NCBI GenBank assembly: GCA_963782055.1
Contig: CAWAIF010000003.1
Span: forward strand, 1,920,001 to 1,984,000
DNA length: 64,000 nucleotides
Origin: an uncultured delta proteobacterium
Lineage (GTDB): Bacteria; Myxococcota_A; Polyangia; Polyangiales; Polyangiaceae
Direction: 5' to 3'
Position 1 is the stretch's first letter. Each line of letters opens with the position of its first letter. Below are positions 4,605 through 40,470 of the stretch, one piece after another. The translations under genes were made by a program, and so were the position numbers. Under the pieces are notes generated by a model that was not told the DNA's origin, did not search any database, and saw only the letters and a list, made by a program, of their open reading frames with translations.

Positions 4605-4616
4605 CTTGTTCGTGGC

Positions 4617-4647
4617 GAGGGCGGCCTCCCTTCGCGGGGCCGCCCTC
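4617..4647. terminator. GC-rich hairpin between convergent genes (possible bidirectional terminator)
   Basis: GAGGGCGGCC ... GGCCGCCCTC perfect 10-bp stem; no strong U-tract. Confidence 0.45.
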
Positions 4648-4667
4648 CGCCGGGTTCCGCGCCTCGC

Positions 4668-5119
4668 TCAGTTGGAGAGCGCGCAGACGCCGGCGTCCCC
4701 GCAGACGGCCGTCTTGCCTGCGCACGGGTCGTTCAGGCAGGTGACCTGCTGGCCGTTGCACGTTGGGTCGGGATCGCTCGCGCCGAGGGCGTAGCACGTG
4801 CACGGCTCGAGCAGCTTGTCGCTGCAGTAGCTGGAGAAGGTGCGGCAGCCGCCGCCGTCACCGCAAGCGGAGGGCGGCAGCGAGGCGTCGCCCGCGGCGT
4901 CGTCCGCCGCGTCGGCGACCCCCGCGTCCTGCGAGGCGTCGGCCCCCGCGTCCGACGCCGCCTCGGCCGCGCCGTCGGACGGCTCAGACACATCCCCGGC
5001 CGTGGCGTCCTGGGCGCGTCCGGCCCGTACGTGATGTCGTCCCCCGTGCAAGCGACGAGGAGCAGGGAAGACCCGACAGCAATGAGGCCAGCGCCGGGAC
5101 GAACTGCGCGCGATAGCAT
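4668..5119 (-). pseudogene. Small Cys-rich lipoprotein split by a frameshift at ~5015 (real lesion or sequencing error)
   Basis: Signal peptide/lipobox (MLSRAVR...LLVACTGDDITYGPDA) is in one frame; the DAG-rich linker and Cys-rich domain (AQDATAGD...CALSN) are in another. Confidence 0.7.
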
Positions 5120-5194
5120 GGCTCGAGCGTACCCCGACCGGCACCCGCCGTCCTGCCCTGCTCGCGCCCGGGCGGCGTGCTACATACGACCCCG

Positions 5195-6355
5195 ATGCGC
5201 CGCACCCTCGTCGTCGGGGACCTGCACCTGAGCGCGCACACGCCCCGCGCCGTCGCCGCGGACTTCGCCGCGCTGCTCCGAGCCAGCGCGGGGGCCCGCG
5301 TCGTCATCGCCGGCGACTTCTTCGACCTCTCCGCCGAGACGCCCCGCGTCTCCGCCGACCGCGCCATCGAGACCGGCTTCGGCGCCCACGGAGAGCTCCG
5401 CCGCGCCCTCGCCGAGCACGTGGACGCCGGAGGCGAGCTCGCCTGGCTCGCGGGCAACCACGATCCGGAGATGGGCGGCCGCGGCGCCAGCGAGCGGCTG
5501 CGTGGCGCGCTCGGCCTCGGCGAGGAGACCGCGTCCCGGCTGACCTCGTCGCCCTGGTTCTTGCGCGAGGGAGACCTGCACGTCGAGCACGGCCACCTCT
5601 ACGATCCGGACAACGCCCCCGAGCACCCGCTCGTGCCGCCGCGCGCCAGCCTGGGCGTCCACTTCGTGGAGGACTTCATCGCGCCCACCGGCGCCTACAG
5701 CTACCTCAACGCCAACGACGATACCCCCCTGCGCCTCCTCGTCCACGCCTTCCGCGCCTACGGCCCCCGCGGGCCGGAGGTCGTCGCGCGCTACTTCATG
5801 ACCGCCGCGCGCGCCCTCGCGCGGAGCGGCCCGCGCTTCGCCGGCGAGGGCGAGTGGGAGGCCGGCGAGGCCGAGCTCGACGCCTTCGTCGCGGGGGCCG
5901 GCGTCGACGCCGGCGTCGCCCGCGCGCTCCTGGACGAGCGCGCCACGCCCACCATGCGAAGCTTGCATAATACAATCGCCCGCCTCTACCTCGATCGCGT
6001 GGCGGGCACCGTCACCATCCTCGCCGGCCTGGCGACGCTCGCCGCCGGCCGCCGCCGCGCGGGCGCCGCCCTGGTGGGCCTCGGCGCCGTCGGCCTCGCC
6101 GCGAGCTGGTCGCGCGGACACGATCGCTACGGCGGCACCGTCGCCGCCCGGCTGGAGGACGGCGCGCTCCGCGTCGGTCGTGCGAGCGGCGCGTCCCTCG
6201 TGGTGATGGGCCACGCCCACGTCGCGACCCAGCGCGACGGCTACGCCAACACCGGCAGCTTCGCCTTCCCGCGCGGGGCCCCGGGGCGCCCCTACCTGGA
6301 AATCGAGGGCCCGCCGGAGCGCCCTCGCGCCGCCCGTCGCTTCTGGAGCGCGTAG
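5195..6355 (+). CDS. Calcineurin-like metallophosphoesterase (LpxH-like) with a C-terminal hydrophobic hairpin
   Basis: GDLH, GDFFD, GNHD, HGH and GHAH motifs in canonical order. Confidence 0.85.
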   Translation: MRRTLVVGDLHLSAHTPRAVAADFAALLRASAGARVVIAGDFFDLSAETPRVSADRAIETGFGAHGELRRALAEHVDAGGELAWLAGNHDPEMGGRGASERLRGALGLGEETASRLTSSPWFLREGDLHVEHGHLYDPDNAPEHPLVPPRASLGVHFVEDFIAPTGAYSYLNANDDTPLRLLVHAFRAYGPRGPEVVARYFMTAARALARSGPRFAGEGEWEAGEAELDAFVAGAGVDAGVARALLDERATPTMRSLHNTIARLYLDRVAGTVTILAGLATLAAGRRRAGAALVGLGAVGLAASWSRGHDRYGGTVAARLEDGALRVGRASGASLVVMGHAHVATQRDGYANTGSFAFPRGAPGRPYLEIEGPPERPRAARRFWSA

Positions 6356-19787: not shown

Positions 19788-21158
19788 TCAGGGCTTGGGG
19801 CCGATGACCTTTCGCATCGAGGCGGGAACCGCCGGCAGCGTCGCGGTGGGCAGGCGCGGCTTGGTCGGCGCCGGCGCCGGGACGGAGTCCTCGTCCTCGC
19901 GTCGCGGATCGCGCATCAGCGAGACGTAGCGGCCGATGGAGACCGACACGTCGCTCGGGGCGTCGACCAGCTCCAGGCCGATCGCCCACGCGCCCCACTG
20001 CTTGTCCGGGCGGGCGGCCTTCGCCCATCGCACCGTCGCCTGGCAGCTCGCGATGTGGCCCTCGATCGGCAGCGCGAAGCGCACGGTCACCTTCTCCCCG
20101 GCCGTCAGCGCCGTGGGCGCGAGCATCAGGATGCCGCCCTCCGAGATGTCCTCCGAGCGGCCGTCCACCGTGATGCCCGACGCGGTCACCACCCGCAGCG
20201 GCGTGAGGTAAGGCGCACGGGGGTGCTTGCGCACGTCCTGGGCCTGGGCAGGCCCCTCCAGGAGCTGCGTGCCGCGGCCGACGGCCGCCGGGATCGCGGC
20301 CCGAAGCTCGCGCCCGAGGGCGGCGGCGTCCGCCGGACGCTCCTCGCTGCGCTTGGAGATGGCCCGCTGCACGATGCCCGCGAGCGCAGGATCCACGCCG
20401 GGCACCAGCTCGCGCAGCGAGGGAGGCGGAACGTCCGGCGCGCACAGCGCGCGCACGATCTCGGCGTAGTTGCCCTCGTAGACGACGTGCCCGGTCAGGC
20501 ACTCGAAGAGGATGGCGCCGAGGGCGTAGACGTCCGCGCGGGCGTCCACGTCGCCGCCGGCGAACTGCTCCGGCGACATGTACGCCGGCGTCCCCACGAT
20601 CGCCCCGACCGCGGTGAGCTTGACCTCGCCGTCGGCGAGGGGCTGCTTGGACGTGCCGAAGTCGAGGAGCTTGATGCGCTCGTTGCCGGCCCCGTCGCGG
20701 TAGACCACCACGTTGCTCGGCTTGACGTCGCGGTGCACCACGCCTGCTACGTGGGCGACCGCGAGCGCGTCGCACAGGCCGAGCCCGAGCGCCACGGCGT
20801 CGACCGCGGGGAGCCTGCCTCGCGCCGCGAGCAGGCCCTCCAGCGTGCGGCCCTCCAGCAGCTCCAGCGCGACGTAGGGCCGGCCGTTGACCATGCCCGC
20901 GTCGAGCACCGAGACGATGCCCGGGTGCCGGAGGCGCGCGAGCACCCGGGCCTCGCGCAGCAGCCGCTCGCTCTGGGTCTCGAGGGCGAGCGGGTCCACG
21001 TTCGGTGCGACGATCTTGAGCGCGACCCGCTGCCGCAGGAGCACGTGCTGCGCCTCGTAGACCACGGCCTCCGTCCCGCGTCCGAGCATCCGCCGCAGCT
21101 CGTAACGGCCGTCGATGATGTCGCCGAGCTCGAGGGGCTTGGAGCTGGGTTCGCTCAT
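19788..21158 (-). CDS. Ser/Thr protein kinase with C-terminal PilZ domain
   Basis: VALK, HRDVKPSN, DFG, YMSPE; PilZ motifs RKHPR (RxxxR) and DISEGG (DxSxxG). Confidence 0.9.
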   Translation of the reverse strand: MSEPSSKPLELGDIIDGRYELRRMLGRGTEAVVYEAQHVLLRQRVALKIVAPNVDPLALETQSERLLREARVLARLRHPGIVSVLDAGMVNGRPYVALELLEGRTLEGLLAARGRLPAVDAVALGLGLCDALAVAHVAGVVHRDVKPSNVVVYRDGAGNERIKLLDFGTSKQPLADGEVKLTAVGAIVGTPAYMSPEQFAGGDVDARADVYALGAILFECLTGHVVYEGNYAEIVRALCAPDVPPPSLRELVPGVDPALAGIVQRAISKRSEERPADAAALGRELRAAIPAAVGRGTQLLEGPAQAQDVRKHPRAPYLTPLRVVTASGITVDGRSEDISEGGILMLAPTALTAGEKVTVRFALPIEGHIASCQATVRWAKAARPDKQWGAWAIGLELVDAPSDVSVSIGRYVSLMRDPRREDEDSVPAPAPTKPRLPTATLPAVPASMRKVIGPKP

Positions 21159-21169
21159 TTCGACACTCC

Positions 21170-22399
21170 TTACACTAACGCGGGAAAGGGCGGGCCCGGC
21201 CTGGCGAGGAGGTACCCCTGGATCCAGTCGCACCCTGCGCCGAGCAGAAAATCCAGCTCCTCGGTGGTCTCGACCCCCTCCGCCACCACCCGGACTCCCA
21301 GATCGTGACAGAGCTGGACGACGATGCCGACGAGCTTCTGCTTGGTCTTCTTCAGGTGTACGTCGCGAATGAGGCCCATGTCGAGCTTCACGACGTCTGG
21401 CTCCAGCGTCGCGAAGCAGGTGAGGCCCGCGTAGCCCGCCCCCAGGTCGTCCAGCGCGACGGCGTAGCCCAGGCCGCGGAGCCGCGCGACGCGCTCCATC
21501 ACGTCGGGGATGGCCTCGATCGACGCACGCTCGGTCAGCTCCAGCACGATGCGCCGCGCGTGCGGGGCGAACCCCTCGGTCCGCGAGTAGAGATCCTCGT
21601 CCAGCAGATCGTGCGGGTGGAGGTTCACGAAGACGAGCGCGTCCTCCGGCGCGCGCGCGAGGTCCTCGGCAATCCGCCGGCGGATGGCGCGTCCCAGCAC
21701 GTGCGTCGCCTGCAGCCGCTCAGCCGCGGCGAGCAGCGCGGGGGGAGTCGGGAGCGCCGGCTCGCGGCTGCGCAGCAGCGCCTCGAAGCCGACGATGCGC
21801 CTCTCGCGAGCGTCCACGATGGGCTGGTAGGCCATGTGGAACGTCTGCAGGGCAGACTGGAACACCCGATACGCCTCCCCGCGGCCCGAGGCCACCTTCT
21901 CCACGCCGCCGACCAGGGCGAGCGCCTCGCGCTTGGCGCGCGCCTCCCGCCCGCTCTTCACCGCCTCGTCCAGCGCGCCGACGAAGGTGAGGCCGTCGAT
22001 GGGCTTGACCAGACAGCGTCGCGCGCCGAGCTCCATCGCCCGCATCGCCGAGGCGAGGCTGGGGTCTCCCGCCATGATGATCACCGGCAGATCCTCCAGC
22101 TCGCGGCGCACGTGCTCGAGCAGGGTGAGGCCGTCGGTGCCCGGCATCGACAGGTCGGTGGACATCGCGTCGAACGTCTGCTCGCGCAGGGCGATCATCG
22201 CGCTCTCGGCGTCGAGGGCGGTCACCACCTCGAAGCCCTTGATCTCCAGCAGCCGGCGGAAGCTCTTGAGCACCGGCTCGTCGTCGTCGACGAGGAGGAT
22301 CCGCGGCCGCGAGGCGGGCTCGCTGGCGGCGTCCACCGGGCGGCTCCTCACGAAGGAGTCGGAGAGGGGGTTTGAAGACAGCTCCTTGGCGGCGATCAC
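21170..22399 (-). CDS. Response regulator receiver + EAL c-di-GMP phosphodiesterase
   Basis: ILLVDDD, TDLSMP, LVKP; EALLR, VNL, LELTE, DDLGAGY, VKLD, AEGVE, QGY. Confidence 0.92.
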   Translation of the reverse strand: MIAAKELSSNPLSDSFVRSRPVDAASEPASRPRILLVDDDEPVLKSFRRLLEIKGFEVVTALDAESAMIALREQTFDAMSTDLSMPGTDGLTLLEHVRRELEDLPVIIMAGDPSLASAMRAMELGARRCLVKPIDGLTFVGALDEAVKSGREARAKREALALVGGVEKVASGRGEAYRVFQSALQTFHMAYQPIVDARERRIVGFEALLRSREPALPTPPALLAAAERLQATHVLGRAIRRRIAEDLARAPEDALVFVNLHPHDLLDEDLYSRTEGFAPHARRIVLELTERASIEAIPDVMERVARLRGLGYAVALDDLGAGYAGLTCFATLEPDVVKLDMGLIRDVHLKKTKQKLVGIVVQLCHDLGVRVVAEGVETTEELDFLLGAGCDWIQGYLLARPGPPFPALV

Positions 22400-26832: not shown

Positions 26833-28152
<1,320 letters not shown>

Positions 28153-28189
28153 GCCGGGCGCCCGGACGAGAATACGTCCTTCGCGGGCG

Positions 28190-29272
28190 TCAGCGGCAAT
28201 CGTAGCGCTGGTAGACGACGCCGTTGTCGGTCATCTCGGCGTGGAGCACGCCCCCGCCGTCCAGCACCACGATCTCCTTGAACGTCTCCTCCGGCATGGT
28301 GTTGGCGGCGAACTGCACGTTGCCCAGCGGGTGCCCGTCGGACTCGGCGAGGCAGTAGAGCAGCACCATGGGGTTCTGGTCGCCGGGGGCGATCTCGCTG
28401 GCGAAGTAGATGACGCCCTGCCTGTCGGAGTCGAGGGCGAGCAGGTTGGCGACGTGCACGCCGAGCAAGAGCTCCCGGGTGAAGAGCGCGTCGCCGGTGG
28501 CGCGGGTGATGGCGCTGACCCACACGCGGCCCGCGGCGGCGTCGGTGATCCCCGCCGAGAGATACAGCTTGCCGTCGCGCGAGGGGCGCCCGGGGATCTC
28601 GCTGCGGTCGCCCGCGTTGCCGCTGGTGTCGCCCAGCTTCACCAGCGGGCCGTGCTCGCGCTCGGCGTAGACGTCGTCGCCGTCGGTGAAGAGGCCGGTG
28701 ACCGCGCCGCCCTCGTCGATGCCCTTGCCTTCGAGCGTCAGCGTCCCGCGGTCCTTGCCGTGCGGGCCGTAGAGGCGGACCTGCCTGTCGCCCAGCCGGT
28801 CCAGCACGGCGACGGTGCCGTCCTTGGCCACCGCGACGTCCTGCGCGCCGTCCAGATCGATGTCGGTGCTGCCCTCCACCGTCCCGTCCGGGCCGACGTG
28901 CACGATGCGGTGGTTGACCTGATCGAGGATGTCCACGCCGCCCTTGCCGTCGGCGGCGAGGCTCATCGGACCCTCCGGGTTGGCCTCCTTCGGGCGCTTG
29001 TGCCCCAGCTCGCCCTTGCCCGATCCCCAGCCGAAGGTGGCGAACTTGCCGCTCGTCGGTGACGGGGAGGTGTCGGCGTCGGCCATCGCCGCCAGCGCGC
29101 TCGTCCCCGTCGCCGGCGTCGAAGGTCGTCCGGCGGGTGGGAGATCGCGCGTGCTTGCGACGGTGCTCGCGACAGGTCGCGAGTCGCGATGAGCCGCCGT
29201 GGATCGCCAGATCCACACGATCACCGCGAGGAGGATCACCGCGGCCACGACGGCGACGACGCGCTTGGGCAT
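28190..29272 (-). CDS. Membrane-anchored hypothetical protein, probable beta-propeller (NHL-like)
   Basis: N-terminal TM, Pro/Thr linker, GPMSLAADGKGGVDILDQVNHRI blade-like repeats. Confidence 0.7.
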   Translation of the reverse strand: MPKRVVAVVAAVILLAVIVWIWRSTAAHRDSRPVASTVASTRDLPPAGRPSTPATGTSALAAMADADTSPSPTSGKFATFGWGSGKGELGHKRPKEANPEGPMSLAADGKGGVDILDQVNHRIVHVGPDGTVEGSTDIDLDGAQDVAVAKDGTVAVLDRLGDRQVRLYGPHGKDRGTLTLEGKGIDEGGAVTGLFTDGDDVYAEREHGPLVKLGDTSGNAGDRSEIPGRPSRDGKLYLSAGITDAAAGRVWVSAITRATGDALFTRELLLGVHVANLLALDSDRQGVIYFASEIAPGDQNPMVLLYCLAESDGHPLGNVQFAANTMPEETFKEIVVLDGGGVLHAEMTDNGVVYQRYDCR

Positions 29273-29406
29273 GGGCGTCACGGTGAGCACAAAGCGGACC
29301 GCCACGCCACACGGAGTTTCGGGGCCAGCTCGTCGGGCGCGCGGCGATCTAGTTGCAGAATACAACTATGATGGCGGTGTGCTCGCCTGTCAGGCGCCTG
29401 CACACA

Positions 29407-29454
29407 TGGCGGTACACCTGCTTCCATGGGATTTTCGCTGGCACGAACCTCGCT
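29407..29454 (+). promoter_or_regulatory. Two candidate sigma54 (-24/-12) promoters
   Basis: TGGCGGTACACCTGCT (29407-29422) and TGGCACGAACCTCGCT (29439-29454) both have GG-N10-GC spacing. Confidence 0.35.
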
Positions 29455-29467
29455 CTAAGAGGTGGCC

Positions 29468-30358
29468 ATGACCTCTCCGCTCCGCCTCGTCGCCGGCGCC
29501 GTCGCCCTCTCGCTGAGCGCCCTGTTCGCGCTGCAGGGTTGTAGCTCGTCGACCGAGTCGTCCGATGGCGGCAACCTGGTGGGCGCGATGGAGTCCGACC
29601 TGGGAGGGTCGGTGAGCTACCCGATCGGGACCACGCTGCAGACCACGGCGAACCTCAACTTTCGCACCGGTCCGTCGACGGGCTACAAGATCCTGCGCGT
29701 CATCCCGCTGGGCGGGCAGGTGGTGACGGTCAACCAGACCTCGTCGAACAACGGCTTCCTCAACGTCAAGTACAGCGGCAGCACCGGCTGGGCGTACGCG
29801 GCGTACCTGCAGCCGGTGAACAACGGCGGTGGTGGTGACGACGCCGGCGGCGGGGGTGGCGACGCCGGCGGCGGCAACACGTCGGGGGCTTCGGGCGCGA
29901 TCGCCCGCGCCAAGGAGGGCGTCGGCTTCTCCTACTGGTGGGGTCACGGCCGCTTCCTCTCCAGCGGGCCGACCTCGTCGAACAAGGGAGCGTGCAGCGG
30001 GAGCTGCCCGAGCTGCTCGCACTCCGGGAGCTACGGCGCGGACTGCTCGGGGTACGTCGCGAAGGCGTGGCAGGTGCCCTCGAGCAACAGCAGCGTCTCC
30101 GTCGATTCGCACCCGTACTCGACGTACAACTTCTACAACCAGACGACGTCGTGGAAGACGGTGTCGCGCGGGTCAATGAAGGCGGCGGACGCGCTGGTGT
30201 ACCGGTCGGGGAGCTCCGGGCACATCCTGATGTACGAGTCGGGCGACGCCTGGGGGAGCCTCTGGAGCTACGAGGCGCGCGGCTGCTCGTACGGCATCGT
30301 CCACAACCTCCGGACCGCCTCGAGCGCGTACAAGGCGATCCGCCGCGACGGGTACTGA
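29468..30358 (+). CDS. Lipoprotein with SH3b domain and NlpC/P60-like cysteine peptidase (peptidoglycan hydrolase)
   Basis: LQGC lipobox; LNFRTGPSTGY...GW (SH3b); YWWG, DCSG (catalytic Cys), GHILMY (His). Confidence 0.85.
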   Translation: MTSPLRLVAGAVALSLSALFALQGCSSSTESSDGGNLVGAMESDLGGSVSYPIGTTLQTTANLNFRTGPSTGYKILRVIPLGGQVVTVNQTSSNNGFLNVKYSGSTGWAYAAYLQPVNNGGGGDDAGGGGGDAGGGNTSGASGAIARAKEGVGFSYWWGHGRFLSSGPTSSNKGACSGSCPSCSHSGSYGADCSGYVAKAWQVPSSNSSVSVDSHPYSTYNFYNQTTSWKTVSRGSMKAADALVYRSGSSGHILMYESGDAWGSLWSYEARGCSYGIVHNLRTASSAYKAIRRDGY

Positions 30359-30368
30359 CGGTTCAGGT

Positions 30369-32432
30369 TCACGGGCGGAGGCTCGCAGCGAGGGTCCGGG
30401 CCTGGCGGCCCAGGGCGTCCGGATCGCCCACCCCGAGGCTGATGCTCAGTTGCCCGCCGGCGATGCGGGATCGCACGACGGGCGCCACCATCACCTGGCC
30501 GTCGAGGAGGATGGCCATGCGCCGGTCGATCCAGTCCCCGGTCGCCTGCTCGAAGCGGTCGGCGGCCGCCGGGGAGAGGGTGACGAGCACCGAGGCTGAG
30601 CCCCCCGCGTCGAGGGGAGCGACGGCGTCCTGGACGTCCGCCGTGGTGATCAGGGGCTTGCCCGTCAGCAAGTAGCTGCGCCAGCCTGTCATCGTCTCCC
30701 GGCCCTGCGGCGTCGTCTCGCTCGTCCGTGCGACGCCGAACCGGTGGCCGGCGGGGATCGGGACCTCTGCTAGCCAGCGCTCGAGGCGCGCGCGCGCCGC
30801 CGCCTCGTCCTCGCCCGCACGCCGGTCGACCGTGGCGTAGGCGACGATGCGGGTGGCGCCGTCGTCCCCCGGCAACGATTCGTGCAGCAGCTCCACGCCG
30901 TCGCTCGGGCGCGCGTCGGAGAGGACGTTGGTGTCGTCGTCGATGCGCACGATCTCCAGCGCGGCGCGGCGCGCGTGCCCGCCCGGCGAGTAGCCGGCGA
31001 CGCCCGCCACGAAGAGCGCGGCGGCCGCGCAGACCGCGAGGGGGATCACGACGGGCCGCGGGCGCGTGGCTCGCGGCGCGCGGAGCTCCTCCGGGCTCGC
31101 CGGCTCCTTCAGCCGCGCTCCTCCCGGCAGGAGGCGCCCGAGCAGATTCATCGCGGCGTCGTGCTCCGCGGCGGGCACCACGATGCGCGCGGGCGCGAAG
31201 GGCGCGAACGCCTGAAGCAGGGAGAGCACGCCCATTCCCTCGGCGCGCGCGTCAATCCCCTGACACTCCAGGACGGCGCGGATGGCGTGCGCCGCGGTGA
31301 CGCGGCGGTCCTCCCAGACGGTCACCCACGCCGCCCCGCCGCGGCGCAGCCGCGCGCTCCGCGTCAGGTCGAGCGTCGCGGCGACGAGGAAGGGCACGAA
31401 CACCAGGCTGCTGCCCGTGGCGAGGTACAGCGCCCGGCTGGCCAGCGCGAGCACGACGAAGAAGAGCACCGAGGGCAGGTACGTCCTGCGGACCGCCGCG
31501 CGCGCCTCCTCGCCCGGCTGCGCGGCGAGCCGGCGCGCCAGCCGGCGAAACTCGGCGGGCCTGTGCATCGCCCAGCCGAAGGCGACGTTGAGCGCGGAGG
31601 CGAGCACGACGACGACCGCGAGCCGCGCGACCAATCCCGCGGGCAGGGGCGGCGCCGGGATGTCCAGCACGCGGAGCGACGACCACGCGCCCGCGAGGGC
31701 GAGCGCCGCGGAGTAGGCGACGATGGACCCGGTGGGCACCGGGACCACGGGGCGCGCGAGCAGGCTGCGCGCGCCGCGGTAGGGGCTGCCGTCGTCGGTC
31801 ACCGCCACGGGCGGGGCCTCCGCCGCGGCGATCGCGCGCAGGGTCGCGTAGGCGACCACGCCGATCGCGAGCGCGGCGACGACCCACTGCCGCCCGTCCG
31901 CGGGCGCGTGCGCGACGCCGCCGACGAGGACCCGGAGGGCCTGGGCGGCGGCGAGCATCACCAGGCCGTTGGCGAGCCCCTGCGCGGTGATGGCCCGCGC
32001 GATGAGCACGCTCACCGCCACACCGGCAGCGAGCGTCAGGGTGACGGTCACGCGGAAACCCCACCCTGGCTCGGTGACCACGTCGCCCAGGCCGGCGGGA
32101 CCGCTCTCCAGCGCGAGCGCCACGCCGAGGCCCTGCAGCAGCGAAAGGGCCGCCGCCAGCCACCCGACGGCGAGGTCCAGCTTCGCGCGGCCCCCGGGGT
32201 TCTCGTGGCGCAGCCGCGACCACGCGGGGACGAGGTACGCGGCGATCTCCACGAGCACGTACGCCGACAGCACGGGCATGACGCCCAGCGCGAGCACGCC
32301 GGCGAGGTAGCCCTTCCCGAAGGGGACGAGCGCCCCGAGGCGCACGCCGGGGAGACGAAGGTACTCGCCGGCGAGGAGGAACGTGCCGATCGCCGCGAGG
32401 GTGAGGCCGAGGCGCCGGGGAAGGGAGGGCAC
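30369..32432 (-). CDS. SecY-like membrane domain fused to a DUF2007-like domain and a SecD/SecF P1-head-like domain
   Basis: SecY-like LPGV, VLALGVMPVLSAYVLVE, GRAKL, LTLAAG, ITAQGLANG; middle AIRAVLECQGIDA; C-terminal ADRFEQAT...RRMAILLDGQVMVAPVVRSRIAGG (SecD P1). Confidence 0.72.
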   Translation of the reverse strand: MPSLPRRLGLTLAAIGTFLLAGEYLRLPGVRLGALVPFGKGYLAGVLALGVMPVLSAYVLVEIAAYLVPAWSRLRHENPGGRAKLDLAVGWLAAALSLLQGLGVALALESGPAGLGDVVTEPGWGFRVTVTLTLAAGVAVSVLIARAITAQGLANGLVMLAAAQALRVLVGGVAHAPADGRQWVVAALAIGVVAYATLRAIAAAEAPPVAVTDDGSPYRGARSLLARPVVPVPTGSIVAYSAALALAGAWSSLRVLDIPAPPLPAGLVARLAVVVVLASALNVAFGWAMHRPAEFRRLARRLAAQPGEEARAAVRRTYLPSVLFFVVLALASRALYLATGSSLVFVPFLVAATLDLTRSARLRRGGAAWVTVWEDRRVTAAHAIRAVLECQGIDARAEGMGVLSLLQAFAPFAPARIVVPAAEHDAAMNLLGRLLPGGARLKEPASPEELRAPRATRPRPVVIPLAVCAAAALFVAGVAGYSPGGHARRAALEIVRIDDDTNVLSDARPSDGVELLHESLPGDDGATRIVAYATVDRRAGEDEAAARARLERWLAEVPIPAGHRFGVARTSETTPQGRETMTGWRSYLLTGKPLITTADVQDAVAPLDAGGSASVLVTLSPAAADRFEQATGDWIDRRMAILLDGQVMVAPVVRSRIAGGQLSISLGVGDPDALGRQARTLAASLRP

Positions 32433-32538
32433 GGAACGGGCGTACCCCGTCGGCCGACCGCGGGCAATGCGCCCCTCCCGCTCGCGGCGGTCCCGGCGGG
32501 CATTGAGGCGGAGATCCCTTTCCTCTAGATCAGCGTTG

Positions 32539-33774
32539 GTGATCACCTTGCTTCGCCTCGTCCGATCGCGCGTCTGCCTGGCGGGACTGCTGCTCCTCGC
32601 CGCCGCATGCGCCTCGCATGCGCCGGCCGCGGGCACGGCGGCGATGGCGGCCGCTCCTGGCGCGACGGGCTCGGCCCCCGCCACGGCGCCGCCCGTCGCG
32701 CCGTCGCCCGTCGAGCTGGTGGAGTCGGCGCCGGTGGAGACGACGCTCGATCACCCCGAGGTGCCCAACGCGTCCGACGTCTGGGTCCAGATGATCGACG
32801 GCGCCCGCCGGTCGCTGGACATCGGCGCCTTCTACATCAGCGACGCGCCGAAGAGCCGCATGCACGCGGTGCTCGAGGCGATCGACCGGGCCGCCGACCG
32901 CGGGGTGCACGTGCGGCTGCTGGTCGAGCAGATCTTCTACGCCAGGTACCCCGCGTCGGTGGACGCGCTGGCGCGCCACGCCAACGTGGAGGTGAGGCAC
33001 TTCGACATGTCCAAGACCATGGGCGGCATCCTGCACGCCAAGTACTTCGTGGTGGACCGGCGCGAGGCCTACGTCGGCAGCCAGAACTTCGACTGGCGGT
33101 CGCTGGAGCACATCCAGGAGATGGGCGTGCGGCTGCGCAGCCCTGCGCTCGCCGCGGAGCTGGACAATCTCTTCCAGGCGGACTGGGACGTGATGGGCGG
33201 CGCGCCGCCGTCGCGCTGGAAGCAGGCGTGGCACGGCCCGGTGATCGCGCGCGGACCCGGCGTCACGGTGAGGCTGGGCGAGAGCCCGGACGGCTACCTT
33301 CCCGACCCCTCGCTGAGCGAGCTCTCCGGCCTGGTGCGCTGGATCGACGGAGCGGAGGCGCGCGTGGACGTGCAGGTGCTCACCTACAAGGCGAAGATGC
33401 GCGACGGCTCCCCCTTCACCACGCTGGATGACGCCCTGCGACGGGCGGCTGCGCGCGGGGTGCACGTGCGCCTGCTGGTCTCCAGCTGGGGGGCGAAGGC
33501 GGAGACGCTCCACGCGCTCGCCAGGGTGCCTGGCGTGGAGGTGCGCGTGCTGACGATCCCGAAGTGGTCCGGCGGCGACATCCCCTTCGCGCGCGTGGCC
33601 CACGCCAAGTACGCGCTCTTCGACGACGACAGGGCCTGGGTGGGCACCGGCAACTGGGAGGGGGACTACTTCCTGAAGAGCCGCGACATCAGCGCCTTCG
33701 TGGAGGGGCGCGCCTTCACGGCGGAGCTGCGTCACGTCTTCGAGGACGGCTGGAAGATGGCCGCCCCGAGCTGA
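32539..33774 (+). CDS. Phospholipase D superfamily lipoprotein (PLD3/K4L-like)
   Basis: Two HKD motifs, HAKYFVVD..YVGSQNFDWRS and HAKYALFD..WVGTGNW; LAAAC lipobox. Confidence 0.88.
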   Translation: MITLLRLVRSRVCLAGLLLLAAACASHAPAAGTAAMAAAPGATGSAPATAPPVAPSPVELVESAPVETTLDHPEVPNASDVWVQMIDGARRSLDIGAFYISDAPKSRMHAVLEAIDRAADRGVHVRLLVEQIFYARYPASVDALARHANVEVRHFDMSKTMGGILHAKYFVVDRREAYVGSQNFDWRSLEHIQEMGVRLRSPALAAELDNLFQADWDVMGGAPPSRWKQAWHGPVIARGPGVTVRLGESPDGYLPDPSLSELSGLVRWIDGAEARVDVQVLTYKAKMRDGSPFTTLDDALRRAAARGVHVRLLVSSWGAKAETLHALARVPGVEVRVLTIPKWSGGDIPFARVAHAKYALFDDDRAWVGTGNWEGDYFLKSRDISAFVEGRAFTAELRHVFEDGWKMAAPS

Positions 33775-33810: not shown

Positions 33811-34275
33811 GAGGGGCCCCCCCTCACCCGTGGTGGTCGACCTCCGGCAGCGGCTTGCTCCTCAATCGCCCCGTCGCGAACGCGAGCGGCGTCAGCGTCG
33901 GCGTGACGGACCCCGCCAGCGGGAACGCGGCACCGACCACGTTCCTGGGACGGACCTCCATGACGCACGGCCTCTGCGGCTCGACGTGGCTGAAGGCCCA
34001 CGTGGACCCCACCACCACTGGACCGCTCGGCCATCCTGCGGGAGACTGCCCGTAGGGAGAACGAGCGATGAGCCGCCGAGGTCCGCCCCGTGCAGCCCAC
34101 CAGCCTCCCCGATGGCGCGCGCCCGGCGCGCGACATCGAGGGGAGGGGCGCCACGCGCAGGGCCCACGCGCAAGCTCGCGCGCGCGCCGGAGCCCGTGAT
34201 CCTGCACCCACCGATCGGCGCGCGCGCGAGCGAGCATGGGCCCGAGCATGGCGCCTGGAGGGGCCCCCCTCACCC
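33811..34275. repeat. 18-19 bp direct repeat flanking an orphan ~430-bp segment
   Basis: GAGGGGCCCCCCCTCACCC (33811-33829) and GAGGGGCCCCCCTCACCC (34258-34275) differ only in C-run length. Confidence 0.6.
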
Positions 34276-35382
34276 CTTCTCCTTGAGCACCTTCTGGATC
34301 ACCGACCAGGCCGCCCCCGCGTCGCTGTTGACGTCGTCCCAACGCCCCGCGAACCGCCCGCAGAAGGAGCTCTTGAGGATCTCCGGGAGCATGCGGCGCT
34401 GATCCCCCTCGAAGAGGGGATGCTTGAGGAATACACATACCTCGTCGGTCGCGCGCACCGAGAGGCTCGCGCGCATCTCGGGGGCGCGGCGCACCGCGGT
34501 GGCGAGCGCCACCACCTCCTCCAGGAGCGCCTTGCCCACCTCGGGGTGGCGCGCGGCGAGCAGCTTGGTCTCCTCCTCCGGAGGCGGGTAGTCCATCTGC
34601 AGCGGCGCGAACCGGTCGAGCTGCGCGGCGTCGATGCCGAAGGTCCCGGAGAACTCCGACCCGCGGTTGATCGCCGCGATGAACTGCACGTTGTCCGGGA
34701 TGGGCAGGAAGGTGTTCTTGATGGGGTGGAAGACGCGGCGGGTGGAGTCGAGCGCGGGCATCAGGGCGTTGCGCGCGCTCTCCTGGCAGCGGTTCAGCTC
34801 GTCCAGGAAGACCAGGTAGCGGCGGCCGGGGTGTTCGCCCGCCTCCTCCAGCGCCACCAGGATGTCCGTCTTGACGAAGTCGGTCACCGGCTGGCCGCCT
34901 TCCCCCGCGCGCACGTGGATGGCGGCGAAGAAGTCGCTCGCGTCGACGACCGCCCCGCAGTTGAAGAAGACGAACTCCATGCCGAGCTGCTTGGCGATCG
35001 TCCGGGCGAGCACCGTCTTGCCGCAGCCCTGCGGGCCGTCCAGCAGGATGTTGAGGCCGCTCTCCAGCGCGACCTGGAGCTTCTTGCCGACGACGGGGTC
35101 GATGTAGACGCCCTCCAGCTTGAACTCCTGCGCCCGCACGAACTCCACCTCGATGGTGCCGCGGTCGTCGCGCTCCGGCTTGGTGACCGCCTTGATCCGC
35201 ACCATGCACGGCACCCCCGGCTGGATGCGCACGTCGTCGCAGAGCACCACCTTGGGGGCGCGCTTGCCGTCCAGGTGCGTCGCGCGGAAGCGGAAGCCGG
35301 AGTCGGTCTGCGGGTTGGTCCAGAAGGTGGTCTCCATCACCGCGCCGAGGGTGACTTCTTCGATGCTGAGCTTTCCGGTCAT
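34270..35382 (-). CDS. MoxR/CbbQ/NorQ-type AAA+ ATPase (AAA_5) with N-terminal beta domain
   Basis: Walker A GPQGCGKT, Walker B VFLDELNR, AAIN, DAAQLDRF, SVR. Confidence 0.9.
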   Translation of the reverse strand: MTGKLSIEEVTLGAVMETTFWTNPQTDSGFRFRATHLDGKRAPKVVLCDDVRIQPGVPCMVRIKAVTKPERDDRGTIEVEFVRAQEFKLEGVYIDPVVGKKLQVALESGLNILLDGPQGCGKTVLARTIAKQLGMEFVFFNCGAVVDASDFFAAIHVRAGEGGQPVTDFVKTDILVALEEAGEHPGRRYLVFLDELNRCQESARNALMPALDSTRRVFHPIKNTFLPIPDNVQFIAAINRGSEFSGTFGIDAAQLDRFAPLQMDYPPPEEETKLLAARHPEVGKALLEEVVALATAVRRAPEMRASLSVRATDEVCVFLKHPLFEGDQRRMLPEILKSSFCGRFAGRWDDVNSDAGAAWSVIQKVLKEKG

Positions 35383-35406
35383 GGGTGAGTCCTGGGGGCT
35401 ACGAGG

Positions 35407-38400
35407 CTAGGAGGATAGGGTGCGCGCCACGAGCTGGGCCACGATTCGACCGAAGCGCGCGACGGTCTTGTCGATGGTGTCGTCGTCGCAGACGACGTAG
35501 TGCGGGAAGCACACCTCGGCGAGGGGCTGCACCGCCACCTGCGCGCACACCATCCGGAAGCGGCGAGTGAGGGTGACCACCAGCTCGCGCAGGGCGGCGA
35601 CGGAGCACTCGGTGGGCAGGCCGTCGCTGATCATGACCAGGAGCTTCGCCTTGCGGGGGCTCGCCTTCGCCACCCCGGCGACGTGGTAGAGGGCGGCCGC
35701 GTCGTTGTTGCCGCCACCGGCGTCGAGGGCGTAGGCGGCGCAGCGGGAGGCGTCGCCGCAGTCGTAGATGACCTTGTCGGTGAAGCCGAAGACGCGCAGG
35801 TCGACGCCGCGCATCCCGCGCGCCGCCTCCGCGAGCAGGGTGCCGAAGAGGCGGGCCTTGGCGATGTTGTCGCGCGATTGCATCGACCCCGAGCAGTCGA
35901 TGACGATGCCCAGGAAGAGGTCGGTCGTGACGCGCGTCTCCCGCGCGACGAGCACGCGCGGCTCGCCGCGCAGGATCATGGGCAGCACCCGCGTGCGGTC
36001 CAGGCGGCGGCCTCTCAGGCGCATGCGCTGGGGGACGTGGCTCAGGCCGAGCTGCTCCAGGTACTGGCGCATCAGCCGCGCCGGTCGCTGCACCTGCCGG
36101 GCGAAGGCGGCGTACTCCGCCGCGTCGAAGGGGACGCGCTCGACGTAGGTGATGCGGTCGAAGTCGTTCTTCGGCGCGATGTTGATCCACGGCTTGCCGC
36201 CGGGCACCGACGGGCCCTCGCGGTCGTCGCGGGCGCGCGGGTCGAGCACACGCTCCACCTCCCGGTCGACCTCCTCCTGGCTGATGCCCTCGCCCCAGAT
36301 GATCTCGTCGGAGCGCGACTGCTCCAGCGACTCGTGCGGGCCGAAGCTCTCGACGAGATGGACCTCCCAGCCGAAGAGATCGCGGAGCTGGTGGGCCACC
36401 TCCAGCAGCTCGGGCATGGTCTTGTGGCGGAAGCGGCCGTCGAAGAGCTCCAGCGCCTCGGCGACGAGCGGATCGTCGTGGCGGTTGCCCAGGCCCATGC
36501 GCAGCGCCCGCACGAAGCGGGAGAAGGCCAGTCCGCTCCGCTCCATCGCGAAGAGCAGCGGGCCGCTCTCCACCACCACGCTGTCCGGATCGCGAGAGAC
36601 GCCCAGGCGCGAGATGGGGAGCACCACCGCGGCCGCGGCGCCCAGGTGCGCGAGGAGCTTCTGCACCTCGATGTCGCGGTCGGTGTGCTGGAAGGCGTAG
36701 GCGGCGAGGCGCTTGAGGCGGTCGCCGTAGGAGGCGTCCAGCGCGCGCAGGTTGCGCTCCAGGTGCTCGTCGGCGACCAGGTTCAGCAGCCCGTGGATGC
36801 CCTCCTGCTGCGCCTCGTTCCAGGCGGCGTCCGCCTCCTTGCCGCGGTGGTACATGTGGTGGCCGAGCTCGTGGAGGATGAGACCCTCGACAATCTCCCG
36901 GCCGTTCTTGTCGCCGCGCAGGATGGGCAGCGGCGTGACGAAGACGCGGCGCTCGCGCAGTCGGGTGTGGCCGAGGCTCTGACCGCCGGTCATCTGGACG
37001 CGGTACTTCTTGCCGACCAGCTCCATCCCGGTGCGCACACCCCACGCGAAGGTCTCCGCCACGCGGGTGAGCTTGTGAAAGCGGCCCAGCCCGTAGCGCA
37101 CCGAGTTGGCCGCGCGCTGGCGGATGGGATCGGAGGCCGAGCAGGTGAGCACCATCTCGTAGGCCTCCTCCTTCGCGACCATGTCCACCGAGGTCGGCGC
37201 CAGGTGCCCGAGCAGGGAGCCCTCCTTCGCGAGGGAGTTGCCCGCGGCGAGGAAGGAGCGCGTCGTGGTGAGCACCAGCTCGCGCGGGGCGCCGGCGAGG
37301 AGCGTGGAGGCCCTGGAGCTCTCCAGCTCCTGCTGCATCACCAGCGAGAAGGCGAAGAAGTCGCCGCGCGCGTGCAGGTGATGGGCGGCGGAGCGGCGCA
37401 GCGATCCCATGCGTCCGGTCCCCTCGTCCAGGAAGGCGCGGAGGGCGGCGACCGATCGCGCGCCCTCGCCCTCCGCCATCAGCAGCGGCACCGCGCGCAG
37501 GTAGGCGTGCGGATGCTCGGAGGCGGCCAGCTCGATCGCCAGCTCCAGCGGGGGGACGCCCAGCGCGACGAGGCGGTCCCAGTGCGCGGGCTGGAACCAT
37601 CGCGCCTCCGACGGCTCGCGCGCGCGCTCGATGGCGGAGGCGAGCGCGCCGGCCTCCCCGCGCTCCGCGAACGCCAGCGACAGGGCGAAGCGCACGTCGC
37701 GCGGCGCGGACGTGTCGGCGCTGCGCGCGCGCAGGCGATCGAGGGCGGGGCACCGGTCCCAGAGCGGCACGCTGTCCAGGATGGGCTGCACCGCCGGCGC
37801 GGCGTCGGCCGCCTCGATCACCGCGGCGAGGTGCGCGCAGCCCTCCACCCCCAGCTCGATGAGCCGCAGCGTCGCCTCGTGCACCAGCGCCAGGTGCTCG
37901 CTCCGGCAGTAGGGGGCGATCTCCTCCACGCGCGTGCTCGCCCGGACGCGCGCCAGCGCGCCGATGTCCGGCTCCCGCGGCGGCGGCCGCGGCGGGGGGC
38001 GCGCGGGCAGACCCACCGAGTCGATCCACCGGGAGAGCCGCTCGCGCGTCCCGGCGTCCAGATCGGGGAGCATCAGCCGGACGCGCGGCTCGAAGGGCTC
38101 CGCCACCGCGGGCATGGCGCGCGCCAGCACCCGCAGCGCCCCGGCGCACTGCGGACCGACCGGCTCGCCGAGCCCCTCGAGCAGCGCCTCGAAGGCCGCC
38201 GCGCCGGCGAGGGCGTCGAAGCGGGGGCGATCGCGCGAGGCGAGCACCGCGAGGGCGTCGGAGAGGCCCGCCAGGGCGTCGGCGCGCACCGGGCCGAAGC
38301 GCAGGGCGCGCAGGCCCCGCACCGCGCCGGCGAGATCCCCGAAGAGGGCGACCGCGCCCTCCAGCAGCGCGCGGCCGTGACGCTCCCAGCGCCAGAGCGC

Positions 38401-40470
38401 CGCGTGGCCGAGCAGGTTCAGGTCGGCGTCGCGGTCGATGAAGGCGCGCACCAGCGCCGCGTCCAGATCGCGCACGAAGGTGGGGTCCTCGCTGCCGTAG
38501 CGAAGCAGCATCGCGTCCGCCTCTGCGGGCGGATCGAGGGATGCGAGCAGCGCCAGGCACACCGCCGCGTCGGGCACCGGGCCGTCGGTGCGCCGCGACA
38601 GCGCGGCGGCGAGCCCCTTGCGCCCGCCGCGCGCGAAGGGCGCGACCTTGCTCGCCAGCTCCGCGCGCTTGCACGTGACGATGTCGCGCAGCGCCATGTC
38701 GTCGGGCATGCGCGCCGCCGGCTCCGGCGCCGGCTCCAGCGCCACGCGCGCGCGCGCCCACTCGGCGACCGCGGGGTGCGCGTGTTCGACCAGCCGGTGC
38801 GCCAGGGCCGCCTCCGGCCCGTACGGGAAGGACGGGCTGCCGTCGATGGCGCCGAGCAGGGCGAGCAGGTTGGGCGCCTTCGCCACCGTCTCCGCGAAGA
38901 GCTCGGCGGGCATCGAGCGCGCGGTCACGTGGAGAATACATAGACCCAGGTCCAGCGTGTCTCCCTCCTCCTCGCCGTGCGGGGCGCGCCACCGCACCAG
39001 GAAGGAGCCGAGCTCCGCGCCCAGCGCGTCGGCGGCGATCTCGGCGATGCGGGTGGCCCGCGGGGCCGGCAGGCGCGCGTTGACCATGGCGCCCAGCACC
39101 GCGCGCAGATCGTCGCGCGCCACCTGCCCGAGGAAGACGAGCTGGTGCACCGCCGCCTTCTCGGCGAAGACGCGCAGCACGGTGCGCCGCGAGGCGGGGA
39201 CCGTCATCGCGTTGACCAGCTTCAGCGCGCCGGTCACGTCCTTGTCGGGCAAGAGCAGCACCGGCGCCGACTCCGCGGGGCGCGCGTCGACGGCGCGGGC
39301 GAGGTTCTCGAGGCCGACCCACTCCTCCAGCCGCTCGTAAGGCTCCTTCTGGAGCATGCGCGCGAGGGGCGCGATGACGCGAAGGTCCGGCCCTCCGTCC
39401 GGGTGGAGGCAGAGCGCCGCGAACAGGTGCGGCTGCAGGTAGGCCGGGGACATCTGGAACAGCGGACCGCGCTCCATCCCGCGCCGCGCGGCTTCGCGGC
39501 GCACGTCGGCGCCGAGCCAGCCCCAGTGGATCATCGGCGGGAAGGCGCAGAAGATCAGGCCGAGCAGGGCCTCGGGGAAGCCGCCACGGACGCGGGCCAT
39601 GCGGATGAGGGAGACGAGCGCGCGCCGCGAGACCGGGGAGCGCGCCAGCGGCGCGTAGACCTCCGCGAGCTCCGCGGGCACGTCCCAGAAGAGGTCGAGC
39701 ACCCGGTCGACGTCGTCGCCGCTGGCCTCGAGGAGGCGCTCCTCCGGCGGGCCGGGGTAGCTGGAGGCGATGTACGGGTCGACGGCCGCGTCGGGTCGGG
39801 CGCGGGCGCCCTTCAGCCACTCCACGAGCTCCTTCGAGCGCGCGCGGAGCAGGGTGCGCGCCAGCGCCGGCGGGATCACCCCGTCGCGCGCGTAGTCGAG
39901 CAGCACGCCGACGGCGCCGGCGGGGCAGGGGGGCACGCCATCCTGCGCGCGGGCGAGGACGCGCGGTCGCAGCGCCTCGTCGGCGAGCAGGTAGAAGGTG
40001 AGCTCGGACGCCTTCTCCGCGGCGCCCCCTTCGACGGCCAGGGCGCGAACCGCGGGATCGGAGTGAAAGAGCGCGTGCACCCATCGTGTCGGCTGGCGCG
40101 TGGCGATGGATCGGAGCGCCTCGACCGCCGCGGTGCGACGCGCGTCGAGCGGCGTGGCGTCGTCCTCGCCGGCGGGCGGGCCGGAGCCGATGGCGCGGAC
40201 GACGGCGTCGACGCCCAGCCAGCCGTCGGCGTCGCCGAGGCATGCGAGGGCGCGCGCGTGCAGCGGGGCCGCCGCGGCATCGTCGAGCAGGTCCAGCAGG
40301 GGCCCGAAGAAGGGCACACGCTCGCGGGCGCCCAGCCTGGCGAGCGCCTCGAGCAGGTCCGGCAGGCGCGCGTCGTCGTAGGCGCGGGAGGAGAGCAGCC
40401 GGAAGCAGAGGAGATCGCGCACGACGGGGTGAGGATAGGTCAGGAGGGGCGCGCGCGTCCCACGCCCCAA
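35407..40470 (-). CDS. Large helical-repeat / HExxH / VWA domain protein (MoxR partner)
   Basis: HEAT-like DPAVRALA repeats; LILHELGHH...NLVADEHLE; MIDAS DCSGSM...GGGNND...SDGLP. Start uncertain. Confidence 0.85.
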   Translation of the reverse strand: MGRGTRAPLLTYPHPVVRDLLCFRLLSSRAYDDARLPDLLEALARLGARERVPFFGPLLDLLDDAAAAPLHARALACLGDADGWLGVDAVVRAIGSGPPAGEDDATPLDARRTAAVEALRSIATRQPTRWVHALFHSDPAVRALAVEGGAAEKASELTFYLLADEALRPRVLARAQDGVPPCPAGAVGVLLDYARDGVIPPALARTLLRARSKELVEWLKGARARPDAAVDPYIASSYPGPPEERLLEASGDDVDRVLDLFWDVPAELAEVYAPLARSPVSRRALVSLIRMARVRGGFPEALLGLIFCAFPPMIHWGWLGADVRREAARRGMERGPLFQMSPAYLQPHLFAALCLHPDGGPDLRVIAPLARMLQKEPYERLEEWVGLENLARAVDARPAESAPVLLLPDKDVTGALKLVNAMTVPASRRTVLRVFAEKAAVHQLVFLGQVARDDLRAVLGAMVNARLPAPRATRIAEIAADALGAELGSFLVRWRAPHGEEEGDTLDLGLCILHVTARSMPAELFAETVAKAPNLLALLGAIDGSPSFPYGPEAALAHRLVEHAHPAVAEWARARVALEPAPEPAARMPDDMALRDIVTCKRAELASKVAPFARGGRKGLAAALSRRTDGPVPDAAVCLALLASLDPPAEADAMLLRYGSEDPTFVRDLDAALVRAFIDRDADLNLLGHAALWRWERHGRALLEGAVALFGDLAGAVRGLRALRFGPVRADALAGLSDALAVLASRDRPRFDALAGAAAFEALLEGLGEPVGPQCAGALRVLARAMPAVAEPFEPRVRLMLPDLDAGTRERLSRWIDSVGLPARPPPRPPPREPDIGALARVRASTRVEEIAPYCRSEHLALVHEATLRLIELGVEGCAHLAAVIEAADAAPAVQPILDSVPLWDRCPALDRLRARSADTSAPRDVRFALSLAFAERGEAGALASAIERAREPSEARWFQPAHWDRLVALGVPPLELAIELAASEHPHAYLRAVPLLMAEGEGARSVAALRAFLDEGTGRMGSLRRSAAHHLHARGDFFAFSLVMQQELESSRASTLLAGAPRELVLTTTRSFLAAGNSLAKEGSLLGHLAPTSVDMVAKEEAYEMVLTCSASDPIRQRAANSVRYGLGRFHKLTRVAETFAWGVRTGMELVGKKYRVQMTGGQSLGHTRLRERRVFVTPLPILRGDKNGREIVEGLILHELGHHMYHRGKEADAAWNEAQQEGIHGLLNLVADEHLERNLRALDASYGDRLKRLAAYAFQHTDRDIEVQKLLAHLGAAAAVVLPISRLGVSRDPDSVVVESGPLLFAMERSGLAFSRFVRALRMGLGNRHDDPLVAEALELFDGRFRHKTMPELLEVAHQLRDLFGWEVHLVESFGPHESLEQSRSDEIIWGEGISQEEVDREVERVLDPRARDDREGPSVPGGKPWINIAPKNDFDRITYVERVPFDAAEYAAFARQVQRPARLMRQYLEQLGLSHVPQRMRLRGRRLDRTRVLPMILRGEPRVLVARETRVTTDLFLGIVIDCSGSMQSRDNIAKARLFGTLLAEAARGMRGVDLRVFGFTDKVIYDCGDASRCAAYALDAGGGNNDAAALYHVAGVAKASPRKAKLLVMISDGLPTECSVAALRELVVTLTRRFRMVCAQVAVQPLAEVCFPHYVVCDDDTIDKTVARFGRIVAQLVARTLSS

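Follow-up and report, generated by a model that had tools for sequence, protein, structure and literature searches.

A conserved family of SecY paralogues carrying a DUF2007-like domain and a SecD P1 head

Background

SecY and SecDF are normally separate proteins. A gene that appears to unite parts of both lies at 30369..32432 on the minus strand of a 64,000-nucleotide stretch from an uncultured delta proteobacterium of the Polyangiaceae (GenBank assembly GCA_963782055.1, contig CAWAIF010000003.1, positions 1,920,001 to 1,984,000 of the forward strand; this whole stretch is called the window in the following). An initial annotation, made from the letters and their open reading frames (ORFs) alone, had read the product as a diverged SecY followed by a small DUF2007-like domain, a transmembrane helix and a SecD periplasmic head, and had raised the objection that it might be an assembly chimera. 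The locus raises three questions: whether such a fusion exists as a maintained gene, from where its parts were taken, and what a SecY-like channel with a head of its own could do in a cell that also possesses an ordinary SecY. We found that the fusion is a member of a conserved, undescribed SecY paralogue family. Its parts are known, their combination is not; no account of a SecY-like/SecD-head fusion was found in a literature search outside of which most subscription journals remained. The papers on SecY paralogues listed by that search deal with the SecY2 system of Gram-positive bacteria, with plastid SecY, or with canonical and general Sec work.

The fusion gene and its product

The frame 30369..32684 (-) is intact, with 771 open codons and a G+C content at third codon positions of 0.94, in a window of 70–75% G+C. 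Within this frame, the ORF and the N-termini of homologues define a gene for a protein of 687 amino acids (aa) at 30369..32432 (-), which begins with GTG at 32432 and ends with the stop codon at 30369-30371. The in-frame upstream extension 32433..32684 (-), with alternative GTG starts at 32546 (the 725-aa database call P0002) and at 32684, is probably untranslated. It is unconserved: the top full-length matches begin near residue 40-45 of the 725-aa P0002, and in an alignment of 12 sequences the relatives begin 4-8 residues ahead of a shared RRL motif. Since the N-termini of the homologues start there, GTG 32432 is the likely start. It is also the one chosen in the initial annotation, whose quoted SecY and SecD motifs are all present in the translation. 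The gene looks monocistronic, lying between one convergent and one divergent gene.

Only four Pfam families were matched at E≤10 on the 771-aa frame, on which SecY, DUF2007 and SecDF_P1_head follow each other in the order given in the initial annotation. Residue numbers of Pfam matches refer to this frame in the following, and domain parts are numbered on the 687-aa protein. The AlphaFold2 (AF2) model, built from an 87-row alignment, reached a mean predicted local distance difference test score (pLDDT) of 91.2 and a predicted template modelling score (pTM) of 0.88.

A conserved family under purifying selection

An exhaustive search of 1.84 billion representatives returned 2923 matches at E≤0.001, 764 at E≤1e-10 and 129 at E≤1e-30; the top matches are for the most part 690-760 aa long and align end to end with the fusion. 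This search was relied on; word-based homologue searches gave 6 and 4 matches for the Ala-rich protein. The 87 full-length members that were aligned share 26-40% identity with the window protein, and both the SecY match and the P1-head match were found in each of the members scanned individually by Pfam (68/68 for either domain). In the databases they are named 'hypothetical protein', 'preprotein translocase subunit SecY' or 'DUF2007 domain-containing protein [Deltaproteobacteria bacterium]'. Myxococcota are the commonest source in an ESM Atlas cluster of 140 members, and all of the eight loci from reference genomes belong to Myxococcota metagenome-assembled genomes (Polyangiaceae, Labilithrix, Myxococcales, Polyangiales).

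The ratio of nonsynonymous to synonymous substitution rates (dN/dS) of the fusion was 0.26, 0.36 and 0.43 in three pairs and stayed below 0.51 for every module, with the lowest values for the DUF2007-like module (0.12-0.35; most constrained in two of the three pairs). Purifying selection acts on each of the three modules. Because 129 representatives match at E≤1e-30, both Sec domains are present in 68 of 68 members and dN/dS amounts to 0.26-0.43, the fusion is not an assembly chimera. The objection fails, and the same architecture, when sought in other genomes, turned out to mark a conserved family.

By means of a profile of the DUF2007-like domain, 301 genomes sampled across the phylum, from 209 genera, were screened, and the family was detected in 14 of the genomes and 13 of the genera; six of these 14 genomes, like the window, match by construction because they gave rows to the profile. 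The counts were one of 23 other genomes in the window's own family (f1), four of five in f8, two of 26 in f15, one of 18 in f2 and five of 101 in the rest. One relative, in a genome of the same family (G225, L030:3622-5957, -), is split into the overlapping ORFs 4878-5957 (SecY) and 3622-5397 (DUF/P1), the result of a frameshift or a sequencing error.

The SecY-like channel domain

Residues 1-366 (31335..32432, -) form a SecY-like domain of ten helices, as delimited by structural comparison (VIA), by the family profile and by the helices of the AF2 model. Pfam SecY (PF00344) is matched at residues 130-278 with E 1.8e-15 and 57.5 bits (cut-off 32.2), the match spanning only profile positions 2-137 of 306, and the SecY equivalog model of NCBIfam (TIGR00967) yields 46.9 bits, below its cut-off of 253.6. 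In VIA, residues 1-370 of the model superimpose on 8ya3_Y with Z 24.4 and a root-mean-square deviation (rmsd) of 3.9 Å over 362 aligned residues; Foldseek matches the fusion model to SecY at E 1.8e-8; and the family profile aligns to E. coli SecY (5abb_A) at E 3.9e-48, with profile positions 11-380 on SecY 18-424. As SecY 18-424 is covered in this way, the transmembrane helices TM1-TM10 are all homologous. Judged by these matches, the channel part is a SecY homologue without being an equivalog of the housekeeping SecY, and the diverged N-terminal SecY of the initial annotation stands.

The SecY motifs PG, ALGxxP, GR and GxxNG are kept in the family, as is, in 79 of 87 members, the arginine of the fourth cytoplasmic loop, C4 (R219, = E. 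coli R256), and D355 of the fusion matches E. coli SecY D415. Further positions are nearly or fully invariant: R75 (86/87), G156 (87/87) and, in TM2b, E62 (86/87), which takes the place of E. coli Q93. The pore ring of E. coli SecY maps to the fusion, by sequence alignment only, as I82 to V51, I86 to L55, I187 to L157, I191 to A161, I278 to S241 and I408 to F348. Column 51 holds I, V or L in 81 of the 87 members, column 55 L, I or V in 76, column 157 F, L, V, Y or I in 83 and column 348 L, V or I in 67. In the alignment, the family as a whole is hydrophobic at four of the six pore-ring columns and mixed at the other two.

In PMC6028853, the plug is the segment between helices 1 and 2b. The corresponding TM1-TM2b loop of the fusion, residues 29-50 (32283..32348, -), is shortened both in the profile alignment and in the model, as the initial annotation had suspected. 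The family profile has nothing that corresponds to residues 53-68 of E. coli SecY, 16 residues of the plug loop. Counted from the G of PG to that of ALG, the loop has 22 residues in the fusion (median 23, range 13-34 in the 87 members) versus 39 in E. coli SecY, the latter number being taken from the profile alignment. The AF2 model has a single one-turn helix here (41-44) and no plug helix TM2a.

Among the structures compared by VIA, eight Geobacillus SecA-SecY entries gave Z 21.0-24.4 and the resting Thermus SecYEG gave Z 18.7. Taking the open-like model for a functional state was rejected, as the best-matching chains all come from one species group.

The SecD P1 head

The periplasmic domain at residues 488-687 (30372..30971, -) resembles the P1 head of SecD according to Pfam, VIA and the organism's own SecD. 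Pfam SecDF_P1_head (PF22599) is matched at residues 669-769 with E 1.9e-16 and 60.4 bits (cut-off 27); the NCBIfam SecD model reaches 45 bits and stays below its equivalog cut-off of 244.4. The domain is beta-rich and aligns in VIA with 5yhf (Z 14.7, rmsd 3.3, 131 residues aligned, 34% identity) and with 3aqo (likewise Z 14.7). Residues 308-488 of the own SecD (L023:1489-3534, G000:C3, +) are 35% identical to it over 181 columns (E 9e-28). The Pfam head match of that SecD covers 386-494, so that the fusion shares with it also the preceding stretch of about 308-385. Such an extra stretch ahead of the Pfam head is carried by the SecDs of the window's family f1 (L013-L022 and the own L023). These SecDs match all 205 positions of a hidden Markov model (HMM) of the fusion-derived P1 head with 195-224 bits; SecDs from other families match it partly, with 79-99 bits.

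Neither the P1 base (PF21760) nor the SecD membrane domain (PF02355) was found in the fusion by Pfam at E≤10; the own SecD has both. Lacking the P1 base and the six-helix SecD/SecF membrane domain, the fusion has no proton-driven motor, and the C-terminal SecD head without SecD membrane domain described in the initial annotation is substantiated. The excerpts of PMC6028853 give as a proposed role of P1 the binding of the emerging chain and its movement off the pore.

P1-like heads occur on other proteins as well. A genome of the same genus (G190) encodes at L024:1672-2811 (-) a 379-aa protein whose N-terminal half is hydrophobic and whose C-terminus forms a P1-head-like domain (PF22599, E 4.3e-13), which is 36% identical to the fusion head, and short ORFs with a P1 head were also seen in G240 (318 aa) and G245 (302 aa). 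It seems that in this phylum the head of SecD is a periplasmic building block open to reuse.

The DUF2007-like domain and the eleventh helix

About five residues after TM10 begins a cytoplasmic domain (residues 367-436; 31125..31334, -), which is assigned by a weak Pfam match and a fold match. DUF2007 (PF09413) is matched with E 3.7e-4 and 21.1-21.3 bits, under the cut-off of 25.7; 15 of the 68 members scanned match it at E≤0.001, the best at 1.4e-6. In the AF2 model, residues 369-434 follow the order beta-alpha-beta-alpha-beta-alpha, and folded alone the domain reached a pLDDT of 84. A wide VIA comparison of the isolated domain gave PrgK (Z 8.9), 2hfv (Z 8.8, 75 of 76 residues, rmsd 3.3), which we take to be a solved member of DUF2007, chains of the EscJ type (Z 8.1-8.4) and, at Z 5-6, PII-like and CutA chains. 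Foldseek found no match to the isolated domain at E≤0.001 (2hfv at E 0.58), and the best match among the sequences of the PDB had E 1.3. Since the ring-building domains of PrgK and EscJ match equally well, the fold is a common one. The label 'DUF2007-like' is a fair one for the middle domain. No function of DUF2007 was found in the literature search, with the scope given above.

An Arg/Pro-rich cytoplasmic linker of low confidence (block pLDDT 54-72) follows at residues 437-461 (31050..31124, -). It measures 12 to 45 residues across the family and leads to an eleventh transmembrane helix (TM11, residues 462-480; 30993..31049, -), which carries the chain to the periplasm in the AF2 model. With this helix and the weak Pfam match, the DUF2007-like domain and the membrane anchor that the initial annotation placed behind the SecY part are both recovered. 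TM11 was also considered as a fused SecE helix and found no support: no SecE family was matched by Pfam at E≤10, and the linker is without a predicted amphipathic helix.

Origin of the fusion

Architectures were sorted with HMMs cut from the family alignment. The order SecY-DUF-P1 was found in 124 rows, which come from many sources and include the window gene three times, a permuted order P1-SecY-DUF in 11 rows and a headless SecY-DUF in 12 rows, several of them probably cut at contig ends. A complete 449-aa ORF with the SecY-like/DUF2007 core and no P1 head is present in G013. In the sorted sequences the DUF2007-like domain always stands behind the SecY-like domain, and the P1 head may be at either end. 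For both domain orders we judged, from sequences and the helices of the AF2 model, that the P1 head would lie outside and the DUF2007-like domain inside, the head being flanked by helices.

A SecY tree was computed from 69 rows, one partial row being dropped and 22 protein rows of the same order drawn at random. It places the 17 canonical SecYs on one side of a branch of length 1.97, with a support of 100 in the Shimodaira-Hasegawa-like approximate likelihood ratio test (SH-aLRT). The end branches of the paralogues have a median of 0.92 versus about 0.1 for canonical SecYs, which is about ten-fold. The P1 tree of 59 rows is divided by a split with SH-aLRT 99. One group holds the same-order heads, ten SecD heads of f1 and one stand-alone head, the other combines the permuted heads with five SecD heads from f8 and f15 and with two that stand alone. 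When a single clade was imposed on the 41 fused heads, the log-likelihood dropped by 98.07 units and the approximately unbiased (AU) test gave p = 0.0029, a value somewhat optimistic because the test was framed after the tree and the bit scores had been seen. The P1 tree together with the AU test indicates that a SecD head was taken up at least twice by the same core. The simplest reading of these sequence data is that the SecY-like/DUF2007 core took its head at least twice from the resident SecD.

Comparison with known Sec systems

The genome (7.58 Mb in 3 contigs) contains a canonical SecY elsewhere, with 379 bits, in the gene order S8-L6-L18-S5-L15-SecY and with S13 and S11 further on. The initial annotation had placed the fusion gene outside the spc operon and had expected a canonical secY at another site; both hold true, the latter within the ribosomal-protein cluster and the former between genes for an SH3-type and a PLD-like protein. 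One SecA (a single SecA_DEAD match), one SecE and one normal SecD-SecF pair complete the set found. The own SecE (L059:1027-1665, +) is a protein of 212 aa with an acidic, D/E-rich N-terminal extension of about 85 residues, followed by three helices, and its gene is located just upstream of a NusG-like ORF.

With the SecY of SecYEG (5abb_A, 5aww_Y, 8ya3_Y) the fusion has in common the whole ten-helix fold, the motifs and the C4 arginine, at about 17–20% identity to the solved chains. It differs from canonical SecY in lacking 16 residues of the plug loop and the tip of cytoplasmic loop C5, in E62 for Q93, in three added elements, in a several times faster evolution of its family and in the location of its gene, which is not in a ribosomal-protein cluster. 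The P1 head is shared with SecD and SecDF (T. thermophilus 3aqp, 3aqo, 5yhf), but in the fusion it is held by a single helix. To DUF2007 (PF09413) the middle domain is linked by a weak Pfam match and a whole-domain fold match, whereas its score remains below the Pfam cut-off. A further parallel is the accessory Sec system (aSec, SecA2/SecY2) of Gram-positive bacteria, in which, according to published abstracts, a second diverged SecY likewise exists beside the housekeeping copy, presumably for special substrates. In contrast to aSec, there is one SecA in the genome, no genes for Asp proteins, glycosyltransferases or serine-rich adhesins are close to the fusion gene, and both the phylum and the domains are others.

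Proposed function and alternatives

We favour a role related to translocation, because the SecY fold is kept and four of six pore-ring positions are hydrophobic, and also because all modules are under purifying selection and a head was apparently captured twice, independently, by the same core. With a probability of about one half, the fusion would be an accessory, self-contained protein-conducting channel that makes no canonical use of SecA or ribosomes, with a head that catches the chain and a DUF2007-like domain that gates or receives. A polypeptide would pass through the SecY-like pore or its lateral gate, and on the outer side the tethered P1 head would hold on to the chain as it emerges and make it harder for it to slide back, a role as proposed for SecDF, but without the proton-driven membrane motor. 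The DUF2007-like domain behind TM10 might take over the tasks of the plug and of the docking loop, either by closing or gating the cytoplasmic mouth or by receiving a substrate or a partner.

Several observations weigh against such a channel. Loop C5 (residues 290-309; 31506..31565, -) is without its tip in the profile alignment, in which V353-R357 of E. coli SecY, with the GIRPG motif, fall on insert states that have no counterpart in the family. According to the excerpts of PMC6021171, the channel of E. coli SecY(R357E) stays shut under translocating conditions, and its authors hold that R357E uncouples plug opening from the SecA cycle. The same mutation had earlier been tied biochemically to poor ribosome binding, which was not reproduced in PMC3689939. 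With the C5 tip gone and in view of the E. coli R357E phenotype, a SecA-driven mechanism of the canonical type is therefore doubtful, and the alignment makes a standard docking of SecA or ribosomes on the fusion channel appear unlikely. Two residues of the pore ring, A161 and S241, are small in the fusion and variable across the family. As P1 heads are also present on non-translocon proteins, the head alone is no proof of translocation. The distribution of the family is patchy; in G190, which belongs to the same genus and is 98% complete, there was no match to the DUF2007-like profile, and the gene is absent at the syntenic site. Conserved neighbours were absent from the 24 proteins scanned at 10 homologue loci and from those scanned at five more; only serpins, near two related loci, and DUF1554-like proteins, near another two, recurred. 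Finally, neither the own flanks nor the homologue loci identified a substrate, a motor or a partner of the fusion, and no driving force is evident.

The main rival, which we consider unlikely, is a sensor or regulator in which the head would bind unfolded or newly exported proteins, the SecY bundle would serve as a scaffold and the DUF2007-like domain would signal to a cytoplasmic partner. Such a function would suit the P1 heads on small non-translocon membrane proteins, the loss of the docking loop for SecA or ribosomes, and a DUF2007-like domain that is the most constrained module and has a small alpha/beta fold as found in regulators such as the PII-like and CutA proteins. However, a complete SecY fold with conserved hydrophobic columns in its pore ring and the SecY motifs exceeds the needs of a scaffold; the core exists without a head in G013 and in the 12 SecY-DUF rows, and the head is therefore an add-on and not the input of the system; and at the homologue loci scanned no regulator gene is consistently adjacent. 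Somewhat less probable still is a modulator or quality-control factor of the housekeeping Sec machinery, which would titrate SecE, SecG, YidC or signal peptides, or move unfolded periplasmic proteins backwards. No gene for a cytoplasmic protease or unfoldase is linked to the own or the homologue loci, and a gene that is dispensable in close relatives fits a general quality control poorly; on the other hand, a plug-poor channel with an outer substrate-binding head would also suit entry from the periplasm, and with one SecA and one SecE in the genome any partner would have to be shared.

It is improbable that loss of the plug has turned the SecY bundle into an open conduit for ions, small peptides, metabolites or, by scrambling, lipids. 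This would agree with a plug loop that is short family-wide, with a model nearer to substrate-engaged SecY (Z 21.0-24.4) than to the resting Thermus complex (18.7), and with the excerpts of PMC6028853, where the plug governs the permeability of the channel; the only role proposed for the P1 head in the same excerpts concerns an emerging polypeptide, though, the open-like look of the model may stem from the species to which the matched chains belong instead of from a state, and no transporter-type neighbours were present at the homologue loci scanned. A decaying paralogue or a functionless assembly chimera, at last, is close to refuted: the long branches, the split gene of G225 and the patchy occurrence would be in line with decay, but the frame is intact, the same domain order recurs in 124 rows (three of them the window gene), dN/dS is well below 1 in all modules, the model is confident, and E62, R75 and G156 are near-invariant.

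Returning to the accessory channel, a narrower version of it may be put forward tentatively, with the odds against it: a motor-independent mini holotranslocon on one chain, in which a plug-poor pore would be covered by a DUF2007-like cap and the SecD head would act as a passive ratchet at the exit. If this were true, the double capture of a SecD head by the same core, at opposite ends of the chain, would be a sign from nature that the place of action of P1 is right at the opening of a SecY-type pore, and the fusion would provide the first functional anchor for the SecY-DUF2007 paralogues. Cooperation of the SecD head with the channel is described as a proposal only in the excerpts of PMC6028853. 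A conserved natural fusion that has apparently arisen twice speaks for a close-range cooperation of head and pore. Being a single polypeptide, the fusion is also a compact object for structural and biophysical work, and a channel that is under selection, yet lacks the R357 loop and the greater part of the plug loop, constitutes a natural test of the need for these elements. Should it export special proteins in soil Myxococcota-like bacteria, this would mean a new accessory secretion route in Gram-negatives.

Genomic context

The fusion gene is one of three genes in a block of about 4.3 kb (window 28150-32450) between the genes for a sigma-54 activator and a PLD-like protein. This block is absent in G190, where these two genes are 138 bp apart. 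Its other members encode a membrane-anchored protein of 391 aa without a Pfam match and an SH3_3 lipoprotein-like protein of 298 aa (29462-30358, +), the gene of which is convergent with the fusion gene, with 10 bp between the stops. By eye, the Cys/His-containing C-terminal half of the 298-aa protein is NlpC/P60-like; no family match was obtained for it. On the other side, the PLD-like gene (32383-33774, +), encoding two PLD-type domains, is divergent and, in its longest ORF, runs into the 5' end of the fusion gene; a start at its first ATG (about 32464) would leave about 31 bp between the two start codons. G190 in turn carries about 5 kb extra between its PLD-like and AAA genes.

At 34270-40470 (-) the window encodes a MoxR-like AAA_5 ATPase of 370 aa, whose gene lies immediately downstream of that for a 1687-aa protein in which VWA was weakly matched at the C-terminus; the two resemble a MoxR-VWA pair in which the partner is unusually large. 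Farther away, at 19788-22399 (-), a Ser/Thr kinase with a C-terminal PilZ domain adjoins a response-regulator-EAL phosphodiesterase, two neighbours that may link cyclic di-GMP to kinase signalling.

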